Positions 34,325-64,000 of a stretch of DNA of 64,000 bases are shown here, in pieces. The DNA is taken from NCBI GenBank assembly GCA_040285855.1, contig JAUFOQ010000016.1:310001-374000 (forward strand), written 5' to 3'. The stretch is from Eukaryota sp. GEM-RC1. Taxonomy: Eukaryota. Position numbers and translations under genes: made by a program. The notes under the pieces were generated by a model that did not search any database, had not been told where the DNA came from, and saw nothing but the letters and a program-made list of their open reading frames with translations. Within the stretch, counting starts at the first letter, position 1, and each line of letters starts with the position of its first letter.

Positions 34325-37300
34325 TGTCTTTTAAATACATGTAGGGAATTTCGGAAACTGATTTCTAGTATCCGATTCACTGATGTTTACAGCGAAATAC
34401 ACTGTATTAGATTAGAAACCAAAATTTCCAGGGTCTGTTTCTAAAGTGTGTACCAAAAAGTTCTCCCAATTTTGAGAAATATTGTAAAGAAAGCCCAACA
34501 GCTAAGCAGCAAGTATAATACAGTGATATCATATCATTGATGTGTGGTCTGAGTTCTGTAAATATGAATAGTGCGATCTGGGACGTTGTGTTGTCAGCAC
34601 ATCATCAATTTGAGTCATTTGTATTCTGTACACACATTTCTAGCAGTTGTTTATGTGAAACAATTCTTTGATGTTCAAAATTATGAAGCAATTTCCCCCA
34701 AAGTGCACTGAACCATTCGAAATGTTGCTGTAACAGAGTGGTACATTACAATGTTTAACAATTGATGCTATATGGAGATGCAAAACTGTCTAAAACACAC
34801 TTTAATATAAAGAACCAAAACTTCAACACTGAGGTGTATAATTAGGTCAATGTCTATTGCAGCCTATGGGTAAAGGATCAGCAAACAAAGAGCCATCTCT
34901 GAAGCCGAGACGATTGTTTGCGTTACTTCCCTAACCTACGGAAGATCCATTTTCAAAAGTAGCAATAACGTGAGAATGCCCCACAGTAACAGTCTTTACA
35001 TTTGATAAATCTCGAACTCGAATAGGAGAGTGAACATTATTTGTTGAATCACTTCTCAATAGTCTGTTTGAATTTTGACCCATTCCATACAATCTTGCAT
35101 CAACCGAAATAAGTAGGATAAATGTTGTTCTCGTGTGGAGACTCTTCACCACAAATCCTTTTGTTGCTACAAGGTATGGGCGAGTTTGACTCACAGTTGA
35201 TCCAATTCCCAGTTGACCTTCGGCGTTTCTTCCCCAAGAGTACAGCAAACCAGACGCAGTTAAAGCATAGCTTGACTCCTCCCCAGCAGCTATGTCAATC
35301 ACATTTGTTAATCCCAGCACATGAATAGCTGAATGGCGATTAGAAGTGGTTTCATCACCCAATTGCCCTTGATTATTTCGACCAAAACTGTAAACTGTTG
35401 AAGAATCTGTTAATACTAATGTATGACTGGCTCCAAGAGCAACTTTTTGAATTGGAATGTTGTTGGGCATGCATAAGGCCACGGGGAGTTTCTGTTATCA
35501 GTATGACCCTGACCTAATTCACCATGTGGGTTCATACCCCAAATCCAAACAGAAGCAGATGACAGCGCAGCATAATGATTGTTTCCTGAGTAAACGTGTT
35601 GGACATTAGATATAGCAGAGATGGGTTCTGGTGTGTCAAAAGCGTTACTAGTGGAAGTTGCACCAATACGTCGATCACCTCTTCCTGCTACATGAACAGA
35701 ACCATCATTCATCAGGATAAGAGAAGCATAATCCCCCAAAGCCACTTCTTTAACAGCAGTAAAAGAAAGGGGAGATTGTGGAAACAGAAACGGAGCGTAA
35801 CTACAAGTAGAAATGCTCAACGAACATCTCCCTCTACCACCAGCCAGTTCACCATATGTACCAGCTCCCCAGGACCATAAACGTCCATTTCTGACAACCA
35901 TGCCGTGTCTATATCTTCCAAGAGCATAGAAATCAGCATATTTCACGTCACTTGCCACGTAAGTAGATCCTGCCTGTGACAGAGCGACAACTGAATCTTC
36001 TTTAGCAAGTGTGATGTCATATAAATTAAACTCACTAAGAGATTCAACACCTACTGAAACAGTTTCATCATCAATAAACTCAATCACAGCAGCTCTCAAC
36101 GCTTCTCGTCGTTGGGTAGAGGACTCAGGATTAGTAACTTCTAGACACAAGAACTCGTGTTGGATAATGTCGAGACGATATTTCTTCCAGCCAATCAGAG
36201 GCAAAAGAACAACAACTTGTAACTGATCTGAGACGTCACCATGAGAAACATGAACATCATACACAGTGTCTTGATGTGTAGCAACAACTTCAATAGACAC
36301 ATCTGCATCTGCTGTAACTTCCAATGCTCTGTTTCTGATAGCAGTGATCTTGTCAGAAGTTGTATTTGCTGATGGTAGGTTTTCGAACTTGTGCGCCTCT
36401 AAAAGAAGAACTGCTTTGGCAACTCTACCTGTACTGGACAACACAAACTGCAGAGCAGAAAAAACCAACACTCGTTCAGCATTAGCTTTAGTAATGACAC
36501 ATTGGAAAGCTGAGTGGATTTGATTAAAAGAGACTTCAAAGTCGACCTCATACCCACTTAAAATACTAGCAATAGAGTTCTTCAACACTTCTTCATGTTC
36601 GTCTTGATCGCTGAGGTCGTCAACTTCCAAAGATGAAGGCATCCCATCTGCAACGACTTCATAAGCATCTTGAACAGCTTGGTCATCTGCAGATAGTACA
36701 AATGAAGTTGTGACTAAAACAACTTGTATCGCTCCTGCTTTGGATATTTCAATTTCCATTCTGAACCAAATGTCCTCTGAGACTACTTTGCTACTGGTTC
36801 CATACTGCTGAGTAACGTCCTGAACAATGTTCAACACGGCAGCTTGTCTGATACTGGAATCATCGACATTAGATACAACAATATTTGAAAATCCATGATT
36901 ATCGATTGCCGTGATTGCATCTCGAACATCCTTAGCTTCCTGACTGAGTACAAAAGTAGGAGAAACATCAGTAAAGTCTGTAGCTTCAGCATAGGTAAGG
37001 CGAATACGAAAGGTGTCTTCATCGAGATAAAGAACTTGAATAGATCCAGGAAAACTCGACACTGCTTCTTCAACATGTTTCTTCACAGCACTTTGTTGTT
37101 GAGTTATACTGTCAATAATGTGCACTGGTAGATCAGTCATCTCTGTAACTTTAATAACGACAAGGCCTTCTTCAATTGCTTGAGCTTGATGAGATAACAC
37201 ATAAGTGGGAAGAATGACAAGCTCCCTAGTTAATGGAGGTAGAGACAGAACAACATTGAAGCCGGTAGCAATTCTGATTAGCTGAAAGTCGACAGAAATC

Positions 37301-39266
37301 AGTGATTGTATCAGTCTTTCGACACCCAGCATTTGCTCTTCTTGGCTATTCAACACGTGAACTGGTACATTTTCAAAGGATTCTTCTTCAAGAACAGTAA
37401 CAGCTAACGACATTTGTTGGCCAATGTCACTAAGTACAAATTGAGGGTCTACCAACAGAGACTCAGTTACACCTCTTAAATTTAGTGACACTTCAAAACC
37501 ATTACCACTTGTGGTCACAGTCAAAGAAACTCCATCAAAGAAATCGAAAGAGTCCAGAAAGTTGGTAAGATATAGAGTTAAAGCTGCTAGGAGAAAGTTT
37601 TCATCATCAAGGTCATGGCTTTCAATACCAACAAAGGACTGTTGTCCCAAGGACATTATTAAGCTAGCCAGTTTCCCTTCATCATTAGTAGTGAATGTAG
37701 CATTAATCATTAAAGATTGTCTAGTCCAAGGTCGATTGACTACCTGTAAAACATACATTTGTCGAGTAGAGGAATATTGAAGGAGATCAATTCTAAATCC
37801 ACGGAATTCCAACAGAATATCTTCAATAACATGACGAAGAGCAGATAGAGTCAATTCAGAATCTTTTGGGTCAAACACTGGAATATTGGAATAATGACCA
37901 CTAGATAACTGATCACCTACAGCTTTAGAACCAATGTGATCGGCAATAATGAGTCCAACAATTACCAAAAGCAAGGCAGACAAACAATAGACTAGTGTAA
38001 GTGTAAATCATTGCATACATATGAGTTTATATGGAATGGGTTTAACGACTGCGGGTGGTTCAGGTCTGAGGGTGGGTACAACTTTGTGGTCTTCAAGGGC
38101 TATATCAAAGTTCGGAAACAGTGGTGGTAAGGAGAGATCGAGATATAAGTCACCGGAGTCAACTAGAGGAGCAGATGGCATAAGACCACCATTAGCAGTA
38201 CAGAATTCATCAATGGCCTCAAATATTTGGGATTTAACATCACCAATGGAAGGACGTCTCTGAGCATGAGGATCAAGCATTCCTGCAATCAAGGACAGTA
38301 TCTTACCATGAAGGCCGGCATCACGAAGGCTACTGATGGTTCTAGTGCGGAAGTTTGGAATAACTCTTTGAGGATCACAATTCAGAATTAAACCTGTTAT
38401 AAGCACCCCAATCGAATATATATCACTTGCAAGAGATGCTTTGACATTTGAGTTGCGAATAAGCTCAGGAGGAAGGTAAGTCTCGGTCCCAATGCCTCTA
38501 GCTTTGATGGTTGCAGTCAACGTAGTTTGGGAAGGAAGATGGAGCTCTAAATCAGCAAGTTTTGCACACAGAATGTGGGATTCATCCTCTAAAAGCAGAA
38601 CATTTCCTGAAATGAGTCATGAGAAGAGATCATACCACTAGATATATCTCGATGAACGATGCCTTCGCTATGAAGGGCATACAGTCCATTGAGGACGCTC
38701 TTTACTATCCGTTTGATCTCATTTTGGTTGAACATGTCTGCAGTGTCGAACTTGTCCTGCACAGAACAAGTCATTTCTTCCATAACGAGACCAGGGGGAG
38801 AAAGTGTCACTCCAAACACTCTAACGATGTTCTCCGGAAACTCAAGTTGTTGAAGAAGGGAGTACTGACTCTTGAGGCTTTTGGCAATGGTACTAGATTC
38901 ACAAGTAGCACGGGGCTGCTTCCAAACAACATCGTTGTCTTGGTATGAGGCTTTGAAGAGGTCACAATTGGGATGTCTACGGATCTCTACCAAATTTAGA
39001 AGCTCGTTCGGCTCGATAATGTTTGGGGTGTCGAGCTCGTCAATGAGTTGCTGCAGAACTATGTTTGGATACAACTCATTGCGCTTGGCCGCACTGTTAC
39101 ACGTAGGACACTGACTTGACCGTAAAAGCAAGGTTTGAACACACGATCTACAAAAGGAATGTCCACATGGCAGCGATACAGGATTTTGAAGTACACCACG
39201 ATGAAGAGTGCACACAATTGACGATAACTTAGACATTGAGAGAAAATCATGCCTTCTTGATTCTGT
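34325..39266. repeat. Segmental duplication, copy A part 1 (direct repeat of 56569-61499)
   Basis: High nucleotide identity; weaker homology extends left (~33870-34020 vs ~52990-53098 plus 54581-54625). Confidence 0.95.
34847..39236 (-). CDS. RING - kinase - TM - stalk repeats - RCC1 receptor-like protein, copy A (possibly pseudogenised); introns 38607-38635 and 37992-38018
   Basis: Same introns as copy B; single-base loss in a C-run at ~35485, compensating indels at ~36190-36205, TGG>TAG at 34931-34933, hAT end 30 bp upstream of the ATG. Confidence 0.8.
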
Positions 39267-45534: not shown

Positions 45535-47385
45535 CAGTATCCTCTCTATATCTTCTCGCTGTATATCTTCTCACTCTCTATAAATTCTCGTTTTTTCAAT
45601 TCCCTAAGTCATTTGGTTATCTAACTTCTCGCTTTATATCTTCTCGCTTTTTATGAGTCAAACTGTACAACAACGGAAACAAAAACCCGTAGAAATCGGT
45701 GTCAAACAGTCAGCACTACTCATTCAGTATGCTGACAAGTATCCACACTTAAAAAATACCGCTCTAGCCCTGTGGGCCAAAGAAACCTTCAATCTTCCTA
45801 CACCTCCTCACCGAACAACTATAGGAAATATACTCAAACGACGTGCCCAAATTCTTGAACAAGCAATTACACTGGAAAAGAACTTAAGACCATCGGCAAA
45901 AGGACACGAACAGTAAAATATCCTGAACTAGATGCAGCTCTTGCTTTGTTTGTGGAAATGAACTCGTCACTGATGACAATCACTGAAGACGTCATTCTGG
46001 CTGAAGCTGAGAAGTTGTATGAAACGCTAGAGATCCCGTTAGAAGGGCATTTAAAACATGGTGACGGTTGGTTTGAATCCTTTAAGCAGAGACATGGCAT
46101 TAAGGTTCTCACTCCTCATGGCCAAGCTGGATCTGTTGATGAAAGGGCTGTGGAAGAATATAGACAGTCTCTTCGGGATTTGTTGCAGCAATATGAAAGC
46201 AGAAACATATGGAATCTAGATGAAGCTGGGCTTTATTGGAGAAAAAACGCATCTACAAGAACACACACTACTCAAAATTCGATTTCTGGATTCAAGGACT
46301 CAAAACAACGAATTACATTAGTGTTCTGTACAAATGCAGCAGGAACGGAAAAGATGCCCCTTGGTATCATAAATAATTCTCTAAAACCAAGAGGAATGAA
46401 GACTAACACGGCAACTTCTTTAAACTTAATTTGGTATGCCAACAAGAAAGCTTGGATGACATCATCCATATTTACCGACTACTGCAAGCGTTTAAGTGAC
46501 AAAATGAAGCAGGAAGACAGAGAAATTTTGCTTTTAATTGACAATGCTCCCTCTCACATATTACAAGAAGAATTGTCCAACATCAGAATCGAATTCTTGC
46601 TTAAAAATGCCACTTCGCACATACAACCTTTGGATGCTGGAATAATAGCAGCTTATAAGAGATATTATTCCAAACAGTTTTTACGAAGATTACTTCCTAT
46701 TGTAGTTGGAGAACGAGTGACTCAAGATGAGGCTCAAAAGAGGATCAAAATTGTGGATAATCTTCCGCTCATAGCCTCGAGTTGGACAATGGTAACACAG
46801 CAATGTATCGCGAATTGCTGGGGAAAGGTAGGTCTCACAAATGACAACCTAAACGAAGCTGAAGAAGCTGCAGTCTCGGATGAGCGTGATTTCGCATTAC
46901 TGAGAGAGTTCGATATGACGGAAGCAGAGTTTGAGCTTATGGTAAATGAAGATTATGAGACGCTGACAGAAGGGATACTTTCAGTTGAAGAATGCTTGGA
47001 ACAGGTTACGGACAATAATCAGGAGATTTATGACAATCATGAAGAAGATCTACAACCACAGGCTGAAGTCACTAGAACAGAAGCATATAATGCTCTTAGA
47101 GCTTTGCAATCCTATGTTTCTGCCAACTTTCACTCAAAACACGCCTCGTTATACACTTTGGATGAAGTTGAACGTGAGTTGGAGGAATTAAGAGTTGGAG
47201 AATTGAGGCAAAGAACTTTGATGCACTTTTTACACTCTACAAACGAATCACATGTGATTGATATTGAGTAGACTCAATAAACATATGTTTTATTTGGGTT
47301 TTTAACATAATTGTATAACTTCTCGCTTTCTATATCTTCTCGGTTTTTGTGTTCCCAAAGGCGAGAAGATATAGAGAGGATACTG
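45535..47385 (+). mobile_element. Full-length pogo/Tigger-like DNA transposon (1851 bp)
   Basis: Perfect 25-bp TIRs CAGTATCCTCTCTATATCTTCTCGC with TA TSD; TATATCTTCTCG subterminal repeats. Confidence 0.97.
45653..47271 (+). CDS. pogo/CENP-B-like DDE transposase (one frameshift at ~45870)
   Basis: HTH regions, GWFESFKQRHGI, WNLDEAGL, LLIDNAPSH, IQPLDAGII. Confidence 0.92.
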
Positions 47386-49295
47386 TATTTCGTTTGTCGT
47401 TGATTCTGATGTTAAGTCCATCAGCAGTTAGTAATCCAAGGCATTTCAGTACATCACAGCCTATGAGGAGTTGTTTTTTGCCAGATAAAACGGGACGTTT
47501 GACTTCTAAGTGGACACGTTTAGGGGATTCGTTACCCATTAAGAGGGATAGTTCGGTATGGTACCTACCTTGGCTCTTCACAATTCGGCCATCGACAACT
47601 TCGAATTCATTAACTTTGGAATGATCGAGATATCCGACGTTTTCGTCAATCAAATCAGCGGTGATGCAGGACTTGATACAACCTGTATCAATCAATCCAC
47701 GAACCTTGCGGGTGCCGACTAAAACGTCTAGTTCCAGAAGAGGGGAAGCAGCAGTGGCTTTGAAAAGTCCTCTGGCGGAGGTTCTGACAAAGTTAGGGGT
47801 ATCAGAGTCTGAATCAGAAATGAAGGAACTAATATGAGGCTTTGGGACATTAGCTGGTTGGGAAGCTTTAGCAGTTGACTTTTGACGAGTGTTATGAGTT
47901 TTAAAGTGAGTAGGGTTTCTGGGGTTTTTGCCTTTCTGGTAATTAGAGTTGTTGGAAGTTTTAGAGGAAGGAGATCGACATTCGCTAGCATAGTGACCTA
48001 TCTTATTGCAATTAAAGCAAGTGATAGTACTTTTGTCGGGGGTACGAGGAGAGCGTGGTTCAGATCGAGGGGTACTGAATCTCGTTGAAGGAGCGGGGGA
48101 AGAGTAGTTAGATCGAGAGTTGGAAGGAGAGGATCGAGATCCTGGTGAGTTACGAGGATTAGAGAATCGTTGGAAGGAACGTCTCTGGTTAGTGTTTCGG
48201 TTGGAAAAGGGTTCAGCGGCTTTAAGTCGAGAAGAATGTTCGAGATGAACGGTCAAGAGTTGATGAGTTTCTTGAATAAGTTGTGGTAAAGAGTGGATTT
48301 GTTTAAAGTCTACGGCTTTCTTGAGAGTGGAGGAGATTGAATCGGGTTTGAGATTTTTGAGGAATTCTAGCATAAGTTGTTTCTGAGGGATGTCGAGTTC
48401 AGAGAGTCTTCTACAAGTCTTAGAGAACGAGGCAATGTAGTCGAATAAGCGACTGAAAGGATCACGGATGGAATGATTCATGGATGAAGATGAAAGAAGG
48501 CGGACAGCATGTTCTAAGGTCTTGACTTTAGTTAGGTCAAGGAGGAAGTTCCATAAAGTAAATTGGTTTGTTAGAGAGTGAGGAGAAATGAGATGGATGG
48601 AATTCATAACATCGCGGGATACAAAGACGTGGAAATCGTCTGGAGGAGTCAGAGTTTCTTCAAATGGCGAAGGAATAGTGGCGGCGGTTGCTCCGGTCAC
48701 GTTTTCTTCGGCTTCAGCAGTAATGGCGGAGCGAGCACTTTCTAATTGTTCTTTCAGTTCTGGTGAGAGGTTCAGTTCTAACAGAGAGTCAAGGGAACCG
48801 ATGGTAGGTTCAGAGGTAGCAGTGGAGGTTCTTGGTACCGTGTAAATATAGCTTCCGAGGAGTGAGTTATCGGAGTCTTCCTTAGTAATGGCATAAGCGG
48901 CCATGTCATCTATCCAGCATAAAATGTGTTCGGCGTCCAAAGTCTTAAGAAGGGGTACTTTGGTTCTAATTCCTTTTCTTCCGAGGGAGGAATTCAGCAA
49001 GGCGACGTTACGGTCGGATGTTCTTGCTTCTTCGAGGTCTGTATCCGAGGCGTAGTTTAGCGAACGGAGAGACAGAGGAGCGGCGGCAACTTCTGGGCGG
49101 CGGCTCGAATAAAGGTTCGGATGAGAGGAGGCATGGCAGCAGTCCTCGTCATCTACGGTGACATGAATATGATCACAATAATTATTGTTGACTATACCGT
49201 CAAATGGGGCACTAGTATCAGAGAAAATATAAGACATAGGTTTATGAGACGGAGATAAGTAAAATCTATAAGGTAAAATATAAAAATAAACAACA

Positions 49296-57075: not shown

Positions 57076-60000
57076 TCAATGTCTATTGCAGCCTATGGGT
57101 AAAGGATTAGCATACAAAGAGCCATCTCTGAAGCCGAGACGATTGTTTGCGTTACTTCCCCAACCTACGGAAGATCCATTTTCAAAAGTAGCAATAACGT
57201 GAGAATGCCCCACAGTAACGGTCTTTACATTTGATAAATCTCGAACTCGAATAGGGGAGTGAACATTTTCAGTAGATTCACTTCTTAATTGGTGGTTTGA
57301 ATTATGACCCATTCCATACAGTCTAGCATCAACCGAAATAAGTAGGATAAATGTTGTTCTCGTGTGGAGACTCTTCGCCACAAATCCTTCAGTTTCTACA
57401 AGGTATGGGCGAGTTTGACTCACAGCTGACCCAATTCCTAGTTGTCCTTCAGCGTTTCTTCCCCAAGAGTAGAGCACACCAGACGCAGTTAAAGCATAGC
57501 TTGACTCCTCCCCAGCAGCTATGTCAATCACATTTGTTAATCCCAGCACATGAATAGGTGAATGGCGATTAGAAGTGGTTGCATCACCCAATTGACCGTG
57601 ATTATTTCGACCAAAACTGTAAACTGTTGAAAATTCTGTTAAGAACATTGAATGACTGACACCGAGAGAAACTTTTTGAATTGGAATGTTGTTTGGCATG
57701 GATAAGGCCGTGGGAATGTTTCTGTTAGAAGTATGGCCCAGACCCAACTCACCATAGGGGTTCAAACCCCACGTCCAAACAAAACCAGATGACAGCGCAG
57801 CATAATGCGTGTTTCCCGAGTAAACGTGTTGGACATTAGATACAACAGAAAGAGCTCGTGGTGTATCATAAGCACGATCGGTTCTGGGTGCTCCAATGTG
57901 ATGACTGCCTCGACCCGCTACACTGACAGAACCATCATTGAACAGAATAAAAGAGGACCAACTTCCTAATGCCACCTCTTTGACGGTAGTATAAGATAGA
58001 GGAGACCTGGGATACAAATAGGAACCGTGAGTACCGCAGGTTCCACCAAAGGTACATCGATCCCCTCTACCACCAGCCAGTTCACCATTGCTTCCAGCTC
58101 CCCAAGACCATAAACGTCCATTTTTGATCGCCATGCCGTGTCTATATCTTCCCAAAGAATACAAATCAGCATATTTCACGTCACTCGCCACATAAGTAGA
58201 TCCTGCCTGTGACAGAGCGACAACTGAATCATCTTTTGTTAGTGTAATGTCATAGAAGTTGAACTCACTTCGAGAGTCAACACCTACTGAAACAGTTTCA
58301 TCATCAATAAACTCAATCACAGCAGCTCTCAATGCTTCTCGTCGTTGGGTAGAGGACTCTGGATTAGTAACTTCTAGACACAAGAATTCGTGTTGGATAA
58401 TATCAAGGCGGTATTTGTTTAACAAATCAGAGGCAAAAAGAACAACAACTTGTAACTGATCTGAGATGTCACCATGAGAAACATGAACATCATAAACAGT
58501 GTCTTGATGTGTAGCAACAACTCCAATAGACACCTCTGCATCTGCTGTAACTTCCAATGCTCTGTTTCTGATAGCAGTGATCTTGGCAGAAGTCGTAGTT
58601 GCTGATGGTAGGTTTTCGAACTTGTGCGCCTCTAAAAGAAGAACTGCTTTGGCAACTCTACCTGTACTGGACCATACAAACTGCAGAGCAGAAAAAACCA
58701 ACAGTCGTTCAGCATCAGCTTTAGTAATGACACATTGAAAAGCTGAGTGGATTTGATTAAACGAGACTTCAAAGTCGACATCATACCCACTTAAAATACT
58801 AGCAATATAGTTCTTCAACACTGCTTCATGTTCGTCTTGATCGCTGAGATCGTCAACTTCCAAAGATGAAGGCATCCCACCTTCAACAACTTCATAAGCA
58901 TCTTGAACAGCTTGGCCATCTGCAGATAGTACAAATGAAGTTGTGACTAAAACAACTTGTATCGCTCCTGCTTTGGATATTTCAATTTCCATTCTAAACC
59001 AAATGTCCTCTGAAGCTACTCTGCTACTGGTTCCATACTGCCGAGTAACGTCCTGAACAATGTTCAACACGGCAGCTTGTCTGATACTGGAATCATCGAC
59101 ATTAGATACAACAATATTTGAAAATCCATGATTATCGATTGCTGTGATTGCATCTCGAACATCATTGGCTTCTTGACTGAGTACAAAAGTAACAGGAACA
59201 TCAGTAAAGTCTGTAGCTTCGGCATAGGTAAGGCGAATACGGAAGGTGTCTTCATTGAGATAAAGAACTTGAATAGATCCAGGAAAACTCGATACTGCTT
59301 CTTCAACATGTTTCTTCACCGCATTTTGTTGTTGAGTTATACTGTCAATAATGTGCACTGGTAGATCAGTCATTTCTGTAACTCTAATAACGACAAGGCC
59401 TTCTTCAATTGCTTGAGCTTGATGAGATAACACATAGGTTGGGAGAATGACATGCTCCCTAGTTAATGGAGGTAGAGACAGAACAACATTGAAGCCGGTA
59501 GCAATTCTGATAAGCTGAAAGTCGACAGTAATCAGTGATTGAATCAGTCTTTCAACACCTAGCATTTGCTCTTCTTGACTGTTCAGTACATGAACTGGTA
59601 CATTATCAAAGGATGCTTCTTCAAGAACAGTAACAGCTAACGACATTTGTTGGCCAATGTCACTAAGTCCAAATTGAGGGTTTACCAAAATAGATTCAGT
59701 TACACCTCTTATATTTAGTGACACTTCAAAACCATTGCCACTTCTGGTCACAGTCAAAGCAACTCCATCAAAGAAATCGAAAGAGTCAAGACAATTGGTA
59801 ACATAGAGAGTTAAAGCGGTCAGGAGAAAGTTTTCATCATCAAGGTCATGGCTTTCAATACCAACAAAGGACTGTTGTTCCAAGGACATTATTAAGCTAG
59901 CCAGTTTCCCTTCATCATTAGTAGTGAATGTAGCATTAATCATTAGAGATTGTCTAGTCCAAGGTCGATTGACTACCTGTAAAGCATACATTTGTCGAGT

Positions 60001-61469
60001 AGAGGAATATTGAAGGAGATCAATTCTAAATCCACGGAATTCCACCAAAATATCTTCAATTATATGCCGAAGAGCAGATAGAGTCAAGTCAGAATCTTTT
60101 GGGTCAAACACTGGAATATTTGAATATTGACCACCTGATAACTGATCACCTACAGCTTTAGAACCAATGTGATCAGCAACAATGAGTCCAACAATTACCA
60201 AAAGCAAGGCAGACAAACAAAAGACTAGTGTAAGTGCAGATCTTTACATACATATGAGTTTCCATGGGATGGGTTTAACGACTGCGGGTGGTTCAGGTCT
60301 GAGGGTGGGTACAACTTTGTGGTCTTCAAGGGCTATATCAGAGCTCGGAAACAGTGGTGGTAAGGAGAGATCGAGATACAAGTCACCAGAGTCAACTAGA
60401 GGAGCAGATGGCATAACACCACCATTAGCAGCACAGAATTCATCAATGGCCTCAAATATTTGGGATTTTACATCACTAATGGAAGGACGTCTCTGAGCAT
60501 GAGGATCAAGCATTCCTGCAATTAAGGACAGTATCTGACCATGAAGGCCGGCATCACGAAGGCTACTGATGGTTCTAGTACCGAAGTTTGGAATGACTCT
60601 TTGAGGGTCACAATTCAGAATTAAACCTGTTATAAGCACCCCAATCGAATATATATCACTTGCAAGAGATGCTTTGACATTTGAGTTGCGAATAAGTTCA
60701 GGAGGAAGGTAAGTCTCGGTCCCAATGCCTCTAGCTTTGATGGTTGCGGTCAGAGTAGTTTGGGAAGGAAGATGGAGCTCTAAATCAGCAAGTTTTGCAC
60801 ACAAAATGTGGGATTCATCCTCCAAAAGCAGAACATTTCCTGAAATGAGTCACGAGAAGAGATCATACCACTAGATATATCTCGATGAACGATGCCTTCG
60901 CTATGAAGGGCATACAGACCATTGAGAACGCCCTTTACTATCCGTTTGATCTCATTTTGGTTGAACATGTATGCAGTGTCGAACTTGTCCTGCACAGAAC
61001 AAGTCATTTCTTCCATAACGAGACCAGGGGGAGAAAGAGTCACACCAAACACTCTAACGATGTTCTCCGGAAACTCAAGTTGTTGAAGAAGGGAGTACTG
61101 ACTCTTGAGGCTTTTGGCAATGGTACTAGATTCACAAGAAGCACGGGGCTGCTTCCAAACAACATCGTTGTCTTGGTATGAGGCTTTGAAAAGGTCACAA
61201 TTGGGATGTCGACGGATCTCTAGCAAATTTAGAAGCTCGTTCGGCTCGATAATGTTTGGGGTGTCGAGCTCGTCAATGAGTTGCTGCAGGACTATGTTTG
61301 GATACAACTCATTGCGCTTGGCCGCACTGTTACACGTAGGACACTTACTTGACCGTAAAAGCAAGGTTTCAACACACGATCTACAAAAGGAATGTCCACA
61401 TGGCAGCGATACAGGATTTTGAAGGACACCACGATGAAGAGTGCACACAATTGACGACAACTTAGACAT
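57076..61469 (-). CDS. RING - protein kinase - single TM - ~8 stalk repeats - RCC1 beta-propeller; predicted type II receptor-like kinase, copy B (~1445 aa); introns 60840-60868 and 60225-60251
   Basis: Removing the two GT-AG introns leaves a 4338-nt open frame; RING CTLH..CGHSFCRSC..CPTC; kinase VVWK, HRDISSGN, ADLE, YLPPE, SDIYSIG; TM LIFFCLSALLLVIVGLIVA; RCC1 WGxNxxGQLG repeats. Confidence 0.88.
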
Positions 61470-61683: not shown

Positions 61684-63357
61684 TTACAAGTAGATGTTCA
61701 ACATGGGAAACTTTGATCGCATCAATCTAGTTTGTGCCTCCGATACCTGATCTTTTGAGAGAAACAAGGCTGGTTCATATATATCATTACGTAATCGATA
61801 CTCACCAATAAAGCCACGAGAGCGCAGCAACGGCGTAATGTCTGACACATCGGAATTCTCAAGTATCAAATATTGTAAGGACAAATACGATAAGGGAGCT
61901 AGATTTTTCACTCTAGTGTTTCCCAGTCCCAATACACGCAAATTAACCAATCCGGATAGGGGTGAAATATCTTGAATCTTAGTAAACTGGAGAAACAACA
62001 CTTCTAACTTAACTAAGTCAGCAAGTGGAGATACATCGGATACACGAGTTCTTGTCAAATCAAGAACAATCAGATTTGAGAGGGAGCTCAATGGTGAAAT
62101 GTCAGAAATGTTGCCAACAGATAAGATCAACTCCTTTAAGTTGATCATCCACATTAGAGGGGTGAAGTCATCTGATTTGATACCAAAAAGGTCCAGTTTT
62201 TCAAGGTGTCTTAAATTTTTAATTTTAATAACAGTGCCTCGTCCAATGTCAGCACAGTTTCGGATTACCTCTTCAAACTTTGAACCTGAATCGAAGTGAA
62301 AAATGTCTTCATCAGATGGTGCGACAACGACATTGTTATCACGATTGGCTGAGAAATCAAGAAATGACTGTTGAACATTCACAACGTTATTGACATTTGG
62401 AAATGAATCACAAGCAAGTGATGGGCTCGCAACTGGAGCTATTGAATGATTACGAAGACTCCTAGGTCGATGAATTTCCACAGAACATAATTGACACAGA
62501 TAGGTATCACACTGACAACAATAAAGAGTTGCTTCAGCATTGGAGCATTCTACACAGACTTGAATTGTTGGAGAAGACAGAGAAGATGTCAGTGAAACAT
62601 CAAAAACCGGAACTGTCGAATATTGTGGATGAGTAGGAGAATATAGGTTCTGAATTTGTCCAGGCAAAGTATTGTGGATCCCAGTGCTTCCAAGAGATCC
62701 AGTAGAATAAGCAAGTTGTTGTTGCAAAGACAGAAATCCATTTCTCATCTCAGAACAAATCGTTTCAGTGTGAGAGGACAGAACAGAATGTAGTGCTTGA
62801 TCGCGATCGATGATCGCTTCAATTGAGCTATTTGATAGCTTTTCTAGAGTCTTACCAGTGAAACCGATAAGCACTTCGTGTGAAAAGTTGTCCAATAGTC
62901 TGTTACAATCCAAAAATTGTCGTTTGAACGTCTCTCGACAAAACACTCTTTTGAGCAAACCTGCATCATCATGTTGAGATATGGATTGCCTAACTTTGTT
63001 GCACAGCTCAACGAAATGTAAGATGACTTGACGTAAACCCCTACATTTCGAGAGATCAGGGACTCTGAGCAAAGGAGAAACAATGAGTTCGGTGAGACGA
63101 AGCATTCTTGCGCCCAGCACTGCAGATTCAGATTTGTTAATCTTGACAGTCTTTATGGTTGAGAAAAGAGTTTGAAGTCCAGAGCCTAGAGGTTGCAAGA
63201 TAACTGAAGAAGCCATAACGACAGCAGCCAGCCGCAACACCGAATGTCCAACAGTGTCGATGAAAAGCTGTGGATTGATCTCCGCAAGATGATAGGGAAC
63301 ATCAGAAAGCATGGCACATAAAGATGAACTTAGATTCTGGTCCGTAGATCTGGACAT
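61684..63357 (-). CDS. MLKL-N-terminal-like helical bundle - B-box zinc finger - LRR protein
   Basis: aa ~55-165 IKTVKINKSESAVLGARMLRL..LLKRVFCRETFKRQFLDCNRLLD; B-box CVEC..CCQCDTYLCQLC..IH..H; 22-aa LxxLxLxxxxIxDISPL LRRs. Confidence 0.78.
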   Translation of the reverse strand: MSRSTDQNLSSSLCAMLSDVPYHLAEINPQLFIDTVGHSVLRLAAVVMASSVILQPLGSGLQTLFSTIKTVKINKSESAVLGARMLRLTELIVSPLLRVPDLSKCRGLRQVILHFVELCNKVRQSISQHDDAGLLKRVFCRETFKRQFLDCNRLLDNFSHEVLIGFTGKTLEKLSNSSIEAIIDRDQALHSVLSSHTETICSEMRNGFLSLQQQLAYSTGSLGSTGIHNTLPGQIQNLYSPTHPQYSTVPVFDVSLTSSLSSPTIQVCVECSNAEATLYCCQCDTYLCQLCSVEIHRPRSLRNHSIAPVASPSLACDSFPNVNNVVNVQQSFLDFSANRDNNVVVAPSDEDIFHFDSGSKFEEVIRNCADIGRGTVIKIKNLRHLEKLDLFGIKSDDFTPLMWMINLKELILSVGNISDISPLSSLSNLIVLDLTRTRVSDVSPLADLVKLEVLFLQFTKIQDISPLSGLVNLRVLGLGNTRVKNLAPLSYLSLQYLILENSDVSDITPLLRSRGFIGEYRLRNDIYEPALFLSKDQVSEAQTRLMRSKFPMLNIYL

Positions 63358-63756: not shown

Positions 63757-64000
63757 TTACTTGGTGCTACTTTCCTGTAGGAAACTTTCAGGAAGTAGTA
63801 GCAATTTGTGTTCCTCAAGTTCTTTAAAAGTTGTTCTAATAGTCATTTCAGCAACATCAGTAACTTGATGAACTTGAGTGAGTGTCTGGCTTAAGTTATA
63901 AGCCTGACACACAAGCCAAATAGCGGCAGCTGCTAGAGTAGACGGCTGCCTATTAACAGCAATTTTCATCTGAGAGCATTGCGATATAACATGGCCAGCA
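63757..64000 (-). CDS. TFIIB: TFIIB copy B, 3' part (5' end outside window)
   Basis: RQPSTLAAAAIWLVCQ..VAEMTIRTTFKEL in one intact frame. Confidence 0.9.
   Translation of the reverse strand, partial: AGHVISQCSQMKIAVNRQPSTLAAAAIWLVCQAYNLSQTLTQVHQVTDVAEMTIRTTFKELEEHKLLLLPESFLQESSTK

Follow-up and report, generated by a model that had tools for sequence, protein, structure and literature searches.

An MLKL-like helical bundle joined to a B-box and leucine-rich repeats in a skoliomonad gene that very probably lost its kinase

The window analyzed here (the whole 64,000-nt stretch of DNA) carries a single-exon gene on the reverse strand in which an MLKL-type helical bundle is followed by a B-box zinc finger and leucine-rich repeats (LRRs). 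Read with the standard code, the frame at 61684-63357 (−) contains no internal stop and its start codon matches the starts of the paralogs described below; an identical protein is already present in a public collection as a predicted gene product. The following features were assigned:

61684..63357 (−): whole gene, single exon, 557 aa, 1674-nt frame
63208..63357 (−): N-terminal extension, aa 1-50, with predicted helices at 3-18 and 29-50
62839..63207 (−): MLKL-type four-helix bundle, aa 51-173, from profile, AF2 model and superposition
62698..62832 (−): brace-like long helix, aa 176-220, helical over 176-218 in the model
62617..62697 (−): junction, aa 221-247, where a kinase block would be expected from the paralogs
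62593..62616 (−): putative remnant motif with the core PVF, aa 248-255, the end of a post-kinase domain
62431..62562 (−): B-box zinc finger, aa 266-309 (Pfam zf-B_box)
61825..62214 (−): about six LRRs of the internalin/SDS22 type, aa 382-511

The content of the window is eukaryotic, with a TFIIB repeat, BTB, RCC1 and transposon genes recognized by Pfam and a neighboring gene with tiny GT-AG introns. The 3′ end of the TFIIB-repeat gene lies 400 bp upstream of the bundle-B-box-LRR gene (63757-63999, −). On the other side, 215 bp downstream, three ORFs at 57076-61469 (−) make up one gene of 1445 aa after removal of two GT-AG introns (29 nt from 60868 and 27 nt from 60251). Its product, a receptor kinase with a ubiquitin-ligase head, consists of a RING, a kinase, a transmembrane helix near aa 395, a long ectodomain and RCC1 repeats; the kinase keeps HRD and has DLE instead of DFG, and the ectodomain is weakly similar to that of P0014, one of the paralogs described below (E 0.002).

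The layout proposed in the initial annotation, a helical N-terminal domain with a B-box and about six LRRs and with neither NTPase nor kinase, was confirmed by a Pfam scan, and the two N-terminal sequence patterns that it had pointed out were found at aa 71-88 and 135-156. No Pfam match to a kinase or NTPase was detected in the protein at E≤0.1 and none to NACHT or NB-ARC, and with tblastn nothing resembling the family kinase was detected within the gene. A hidden intron housing the kinase was considered and rejected: the ORF holds a single GT-AG candidate of 28 nt, at 62855, which sits in a stretch that is coding-conserved in the paralogs, and splicing it out would lead to a 194-aa product. 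No other copy of the bundle turned up when the window was searched as 618 six-frame pieces.

Both C-terminal modules are regular. The B-box is recognized by Pfam zf-B_box above the cut-off (E 6.6e-9), retains all eight C6H2 zinc ligands (aa 268-304), and aligns with the B-box of the paralog P0013 (E 6.5e-10). B-boxes are capable of self-association. In TRIM/RBCC proteins the order is RING, B-box and coiled coil, whereas the ORF studied here has a B-box and no RING, the nearby RING belonging to the separate downstream gene. The LRR region matches Pfam LRR_4 (E 5.6e-17), and its best PDB sequence matches are internalin A and a bacterial LRR-Roc protein. The 22-residue units begin near aa 382, 404, 426, 448, 470 and 492 (four of them exact by regular expression, the remaining ones read by eye from the sequence), and the repeats are 38% identical to those of the paralog P0019.

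A Pfam scan of the whole protein did not return MLKL_N. When the N-terminal domain was excised, MLKL_N (PF22215) became the top family, with an E-value of 0.013-0.028 and 14-15 bits versus a cut-off of 27. More telling was a 12-sequence profile, built from the window domain and 11 relatives (the 105-aa fragment P0018 was left out), for which all seven PDB matches at E≤10 are MLKL (best E 9.4e-5), aligned without gaps over 114-118 positions. K72 and R84, which are invariant in the family, align with K22 and R34 of human MLKL; K72 is located at the alpha1-alpha2 junction and R84 in alpha2, the region of human MLKL's lipid-binding basic residues.

The AF2 model of the domain (mean pLDDT 82) contains helices at 3-18, 29-50, 55-70, 75-98, 106-128, 137-173 and 176-218. 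It superposes on human MLKL 6ux8 with Z 9.1 and rmsd 3.0 over 117 aligned residues, pairing model residues 51-171 with chain residues 1-121 (the register also given by sequence), and on mouse MLKL 4btf with Z 8.7. Structure alone does not discriminate MLKL from other helical bundles, as unrelated ones superpose with Z up to 10.9 (versus 9.1 for MLKL). The identity to MLKL (16%) is the highest among the superpositions listed, and since, in addition, the sequence and structure registers agree, homology of this bundle to that of MLKL is well supported; the MLKL likeness asserted in the initial annotation is thus borne out by the family profile and the shared register. In Foldseek, the comparison named there, no match to the isolated domain reached E≤0.001; MLKL 2msv (E 0.34, rank about 9-10) had the best probability (0.98) and rmsd (4.1) of the matches listed. 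In the ESM Atlas, basidiomycete and oomycete clusters at 0.93-0.95 are nearest to the domain, two clusters carry MLKL_N on 22-26% of their members, and the closest structural resemblance is to the N-terminal region of a NACHT-TPR protein from a basidiomycete (TM 0.69 over 170 residues).

A phmmer search with aa 36-217 against 1.84 billion representatives matched 13 other proteins, 12 of which come from Skoliomonas, five from Eukaryota sp. GEM-RC1 and seven from TZLM1-RC. Both isolates are anaerobic free-living metamonad flagellates according to the available text of PMC11603281. A bacterial repeat protein (P0017) with 23% identity in three stretches was dropped before relatives were counted; the resulting 12 relatives, drawn from 50% cluster representatives, are a lower bound. 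MLKL_N matches 11 of them at E≤0.007, with four passing the cut-off, and the window domain is 33-43% identical to ten of them. Against a family profile built without it, the window protein scores 232 bits over aa 4-220, and all six invariant columns of the family are present.

The majority of the relatives (nine of 12) show a full layout of bundle, brace, kinase, a helical domain of about 100 residues and a variable tail. The tail consists of RCC1 repeats in P0007, LRR_6 in P0015 and P0016, LRR_4 in P0019 and a B-box in P0013, the only relative that has one, and P0009 has little tail; transmembrane segments are found in P0008, P0013 and P0014. In P0010, RCC1 repeats and a transmembrane helix are placed ahead of the bundle. 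The automatic gene model of this protein reads, in order, a signal-peptide-like start, RCC1, one transmembrane helix, bundle, brace and kinase, and the MLKL-like module is predicted to form the cytoplasmic part of a type I receptor. The catalytic Lys, HRD and DWG are kept in eight of the nine full kinases, P0015 having HGD and GWG, and judged by these motifs the kinases of eight full paralogs are apparently catalytically intact. For the model of P0009, the top Foldseek match is full-length mouse MLKL (4btf, E 2.9e-11, 493 columns), followed with comparable E-values by hundreds of kinase domains. Sequence comparison does not assign the P0009 kinase clearly to any one family, with CK2, B-Raf, PknB and MLKL all near 1e-9. 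The all-helical domain behind the kinase (about 100 residues, aa 520-616 in P0009), modelled at a pLDDT of about 90, occurs in all nine full paralogs and has no Pfam name.

Three relatives are short: P0011 ends in the kinase N-lobe, P0012 consists of a bundle and a short tail, and P0018 is a fragment. P0012, a second kinase-free member whose domain is 74% identical to that of P0016, reflects either a separate kinase loss or a broken gene model, and in P0011 an Hsp70 fragment precedes the bundle. In the automatic gene models, the bundle is internal in three of the 12 relatives (P0010, where it lies behind the transmembrane helix, P0011 and P0019). A weak second match to the bundle profile precedes the main one in P0019 (aa 84-124, E 2.4e-4 in a five-sequence search) and is possibly a degenerate tandem bundle.

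The brace is the last part of the window protein that is homologous to the kinase-bearing paralogs, and the family profile alignment ends with it at aa 220. At this junction, the kinase-bearing paralogs have about 370 aa more, comprising a further helix, the kinase and the post-kinase helical domain. The alignment of the window protein with P0013 falls into two blocks in collinear order, pairing aa 5-206 with 6-212 and aa 249-314 with 622-689. The second block (E 6.5e-10) begins at the PVF motif and runs through the B-box, with 18 residues between the motif and the first cysteine in the window protein and 20 in P0013. The same motif closes the post-kinase helical domain in six of the nine kinase paralogs, whatever their tail type. 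Scored with a matrix made from the paralogs only, the copy in the window protein reaches 17.3, versus 8.2 for the next-best site in the protein, and neither 10000 shuffles of the linker nor 9552 8-mers from the other long ORFs of the window attained its score (0 of each), counts that are no blind test as the motif was picked after being seen. With an HMM that covered the entire post-kinase domain, the window protein did not match significantly, and only the terminal motif was aligned; a full-length alignment was left unused, as it artificially paired the kinase with the B-box and LRRs. The junction itself (aa 221-247) is unrecognizable relative to the paralogs, and the domains flanking it are intact.

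Because the brace and the end motif are kept at nearly the P0013 spacing to the B-box, a deletion of about 370 residues is indicated, and the simplest reading is either one in-frame loss or a recombination between two paralogs with the same outcome. Thus, the window protein is very probably a member of the MLKL-like family that lost its kinase. For the direction of change, loss rather than an independent fusion, the motif and the collinearity are the evidence, and in the tree most forks are open, so that it names no closest paralog, donor or order of events. A gene that never had a kinase, formed when an exon-like bundle-brace module recombined straight onto a B-box-LRR gene, with the shared motif arriving together with the B-box from a P0013-like donor, would agree with the lack of a kinase remnant and with a tree that does not set the window protein beside P0013 (34% identity), identity being higher (42-43%) to P0007, P0008 and P0010. 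However, the motif stands before the variable tail in kinase paralogs of any tail type, so both halves would derive from kinase-family genes either way, and this very improbable alternative would alter the route (recombination of two paralogs) and not the outcome.

The family also bears on the idea, put forward in the initial annotation, that the B-box drives oligomerization in place of a NACHT or NB-ARC domain. Neither has a Pfam match in any of the 12 relatives, and nine of them have a kinase at this position; a history of that kind is thus not supported, and what the window protein lacks compared with its family is a kinase and not a NACHT. In mouse MLKL, the oligomerization element is the brace helix (10.1101/2021.05.03.442385, available text), and the contacts of the AtMLKL3 tetramer are likewise mediated by the brace (10.1101/681015, available text). 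Since this element is retained in the window protein, the B-box is dispensable for that role and need not stand in for an NTPase.

Residue 1 of MLKL aligns to aa 51 of the window protein, so that the bundle is not at the extreme N-terminus. The 50-aa extension ahead of it is conserved in the skoliomonad family and has no counterpart in human MLKL. The most hydrophobic 19-mer of the window domain (aa 36-54) has a mean Kyte-Doolittle value of 1.77, and none of the 19-mers in the N-terminal domains reaches transmembrane level (maxima 1.2-1.9 for the nine listed of 12 members).

Retention of the bundle and brace after loss of the kinase points to a kinase-independent use, either partner binding in trans or membrane action. 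Tentatively, we favor a role as a non-catalytic adaptor or decoy for the kinase-bearing paralogs. Binding of a ligand or scaffold would fall to the LRRs and B-box. Through the bundle and brace that it has kept, the protein would enter oligomers together with the kinase-bearing paralogs, a partnership that could lend these new specificity or damp them. Rather than forming a pore, the bundle would then mediate contacts and self-inhibition, the role proposed for it in wheat Pm13. In Pm13, the bundle and the bundle with brace do not kill and the brace with kinase does (PMC11297308, available text), and a non-lytic role is suggested because this protein, the closest tested bundle with an active kinase, has a non-toxic bundle. 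A non-lytic role is also suggested by the 50-aa extension preceding the bundle, a feature on account of which Goodbye-like domains are not credited with a death function (PMC9815663, available text), by the internal bundles in the automatic gene models of three of the 12 relatives, and by the lack of a transmembrane-level N-terminal 19-mer in the nine listed of 12 members. Against an adaptor or decoy, the piece retained here corresponds to the toxic piece of AtMLKL1 and 3, whose bundle and brace suffice for cell death, boosted by forced oligomerization (10.1101/681015, available text), and the invariant K72 and R84 would fall into the lipid-binding region of MLKL. Membrane permeabilization by the bundle of the window protein is possible, but the N-terminal extension and the non-toxic Pm13 bundle caution against taking it for granted.

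An all-in-one sensor-executioner, the corrected form of what the initial annotation had proposed and one without a kinase switch, is a possible, if somewhat unlikely, alternative. Ligand binding by the LRRs would lead to clustering through brace and B-box, which would free the N-terminal helices to form a cation channel or cause lysis. The MLKL-type fold and register and the killing by AtMLKL1/3 bundle and brace alone speak for it, as does the moderately hydrophobic helix at aa 36-54. The human bundle and brace is self-inhibited (PMC13180255, available text), so that a form lacking the kinase would not have to be toxic all the time. The downstream neighbor carries its RING in the same N-terminal slot, before kinase, transmembrane helix and RCC1 repeats, which suggests a slot for output modules, and the best look-alike in the Atlas is the N-terminus of a NACHT-TPR protein. 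On the other side, the Pm13 bundle is non-toxic, an N-terminal extension is present and bundles are internal in three of 12 relatives, the switch domain is absent, and the fold by itself shows no function, as unrelated bundles score equally well. Also fairly unlikely is a wider reading in which skoliomonads would run an NLR-like repertoire on MLKL logic, with membrane-acting bundle, kinase switch and shuffled sensor, and the gene studied here would be its switch-free, one-piece sensor-executioner, the bundle being set free directly by binding at the LRRs. If true, a unicellular metamonad would possess immunity that is necroptosis-like or works through ion channels.

Improbable, in our view, is a reading in which the gene is neutral or decaying: it would be a by-product of the birth-and-death shuffling of an expanded kinase family and would have had no function under selection after the kinase was lost. 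No relative of the same architecture was found among the 1.84 billion representatives by phmmer, nor by an insensitive word-index search of 5.8 billion proteins in the length ranges covered: queries with aa 30-220 and aa 240-420 over lengths 306-975 returned the query itself only, and three matches were obtained with a profile over lengths 399-2000. Decay would also fit the further broken-looking family members P0011, P0012 and P0018, the transposon genes in the window and the absence of some family-conserved tryptophans. However, the 1674-nt frame is intact and the domain fits the family profile no worse than those of kinase-bearing members (234 bits in a leave-one-out test, in which ten paralogs score 196-316 and P0019 scores 100). 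The end branch of 0.74 is in the range of the paralogs (0.11-1.07, P0019 aside), and the junction is eroded while the flanking domains stay intact. Profile fit, branch length and the regular B-box and LRRs favor constraint, as far as sequence can indicate it, and they are also compatible with a recent deletion, which would spare the domains even without selection.

Among known systems, animal MLKL (4btf, 6ux8, 2msv) has bundle and brace in the same register, offset by 50 residues. It carries a pseudokinase, whereas the window protein has no kinase or pseudokinase and adds the 50-aa extension, B-box and LRRs; the skoliomonad paralogs differ from it by apparently intact kinases and sensor-like tails. 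Arabidopsis AtMLKL3 (6ka4) superposes over bundle and brace with Z 8.2 and rmsd 3.1 (134 aligned, model 51-187). AtMLKL1-3 have a pseudokinase and no repeats, in contrast to the window protein with repeats and no kinase, and their bundle and brace is toxic as far as described in the available text. Wheat Pm13 (MLKL-K) has a bundle and brace joined to a Ser/Thr kinase that is predicted to be active (PMC10951266, PMC11297308, available text), like eight of the nine full paralogs. It is a recent grass-specific fusion without a C-terminal sensor tail, and the two layouts are likely convergent; the kinase that kills in Pm13, according to the same available text, is absent from the window protein. 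In plants, kinase-free precedents exist in which MLKL_NTD is fused to WD40, BRX, PLAC8 or an NLR (PMC11297308, available text). The HeLo-like, Goodbye-like and basidiomycete MLKL-like N-termini of fungal NLRs share with the window protein a four-helix core and an extra N-terminal helix (PMC9815663, available text). These fungal domains sit on NACHT/NB-ARC receptors or bear amyloid motifs, whereas no NTPase is found in the window protein or its 12 relatives; likewise, the central NACHT or NB-ARC NTPase of NLR/STAND proteins is absent from the window protein.

MLKL-like bundles are known from animals, plants and fungi (PMC12881547, PMC10197012, available text), and MLKL-like domains outside animals are not new, as they occur in fungi and plants and in oomycete clusters of the Atlas. 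A literature search mostly outside subscription papers returned no report of MLKL-like proteins in Metamonada or of a fusion to B-box and LRRs, and the word "MLKL" is absent from the main text and six readable supplements of the genome paper PMC11316075 (one image-only file aside); domain databases may already tag the MLKL-like paralogs. The wider skoliomonad family matters more than the single gene, as it extends the complete MLKL layout to Metamonada, where it comes with apparently active kinases and interchangeable sensor tails in free-living anaerobic flagellates distant from animals, plants and fungi. Its kinase-bearing and kinase-free members also form a natural pair for the question posed by Pm13 versus AtMLKL, whether the bundle is killer or brake in fusions with an active kinase.

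Elsewhere in the window, an ORF at 47330-49237 (−) has matches to a zinc knuckle and a retroviral-type aspartyl protease, resembling the gag-protease of LTR retrotransposons, and a DDE transposase of the Tc5/pogo type is encoded at 45946-47271 (+). Another long ORF, at 35416-37983 (−), has RCC1 repeats at its end, and short ORFs upstream of it may be further exons.
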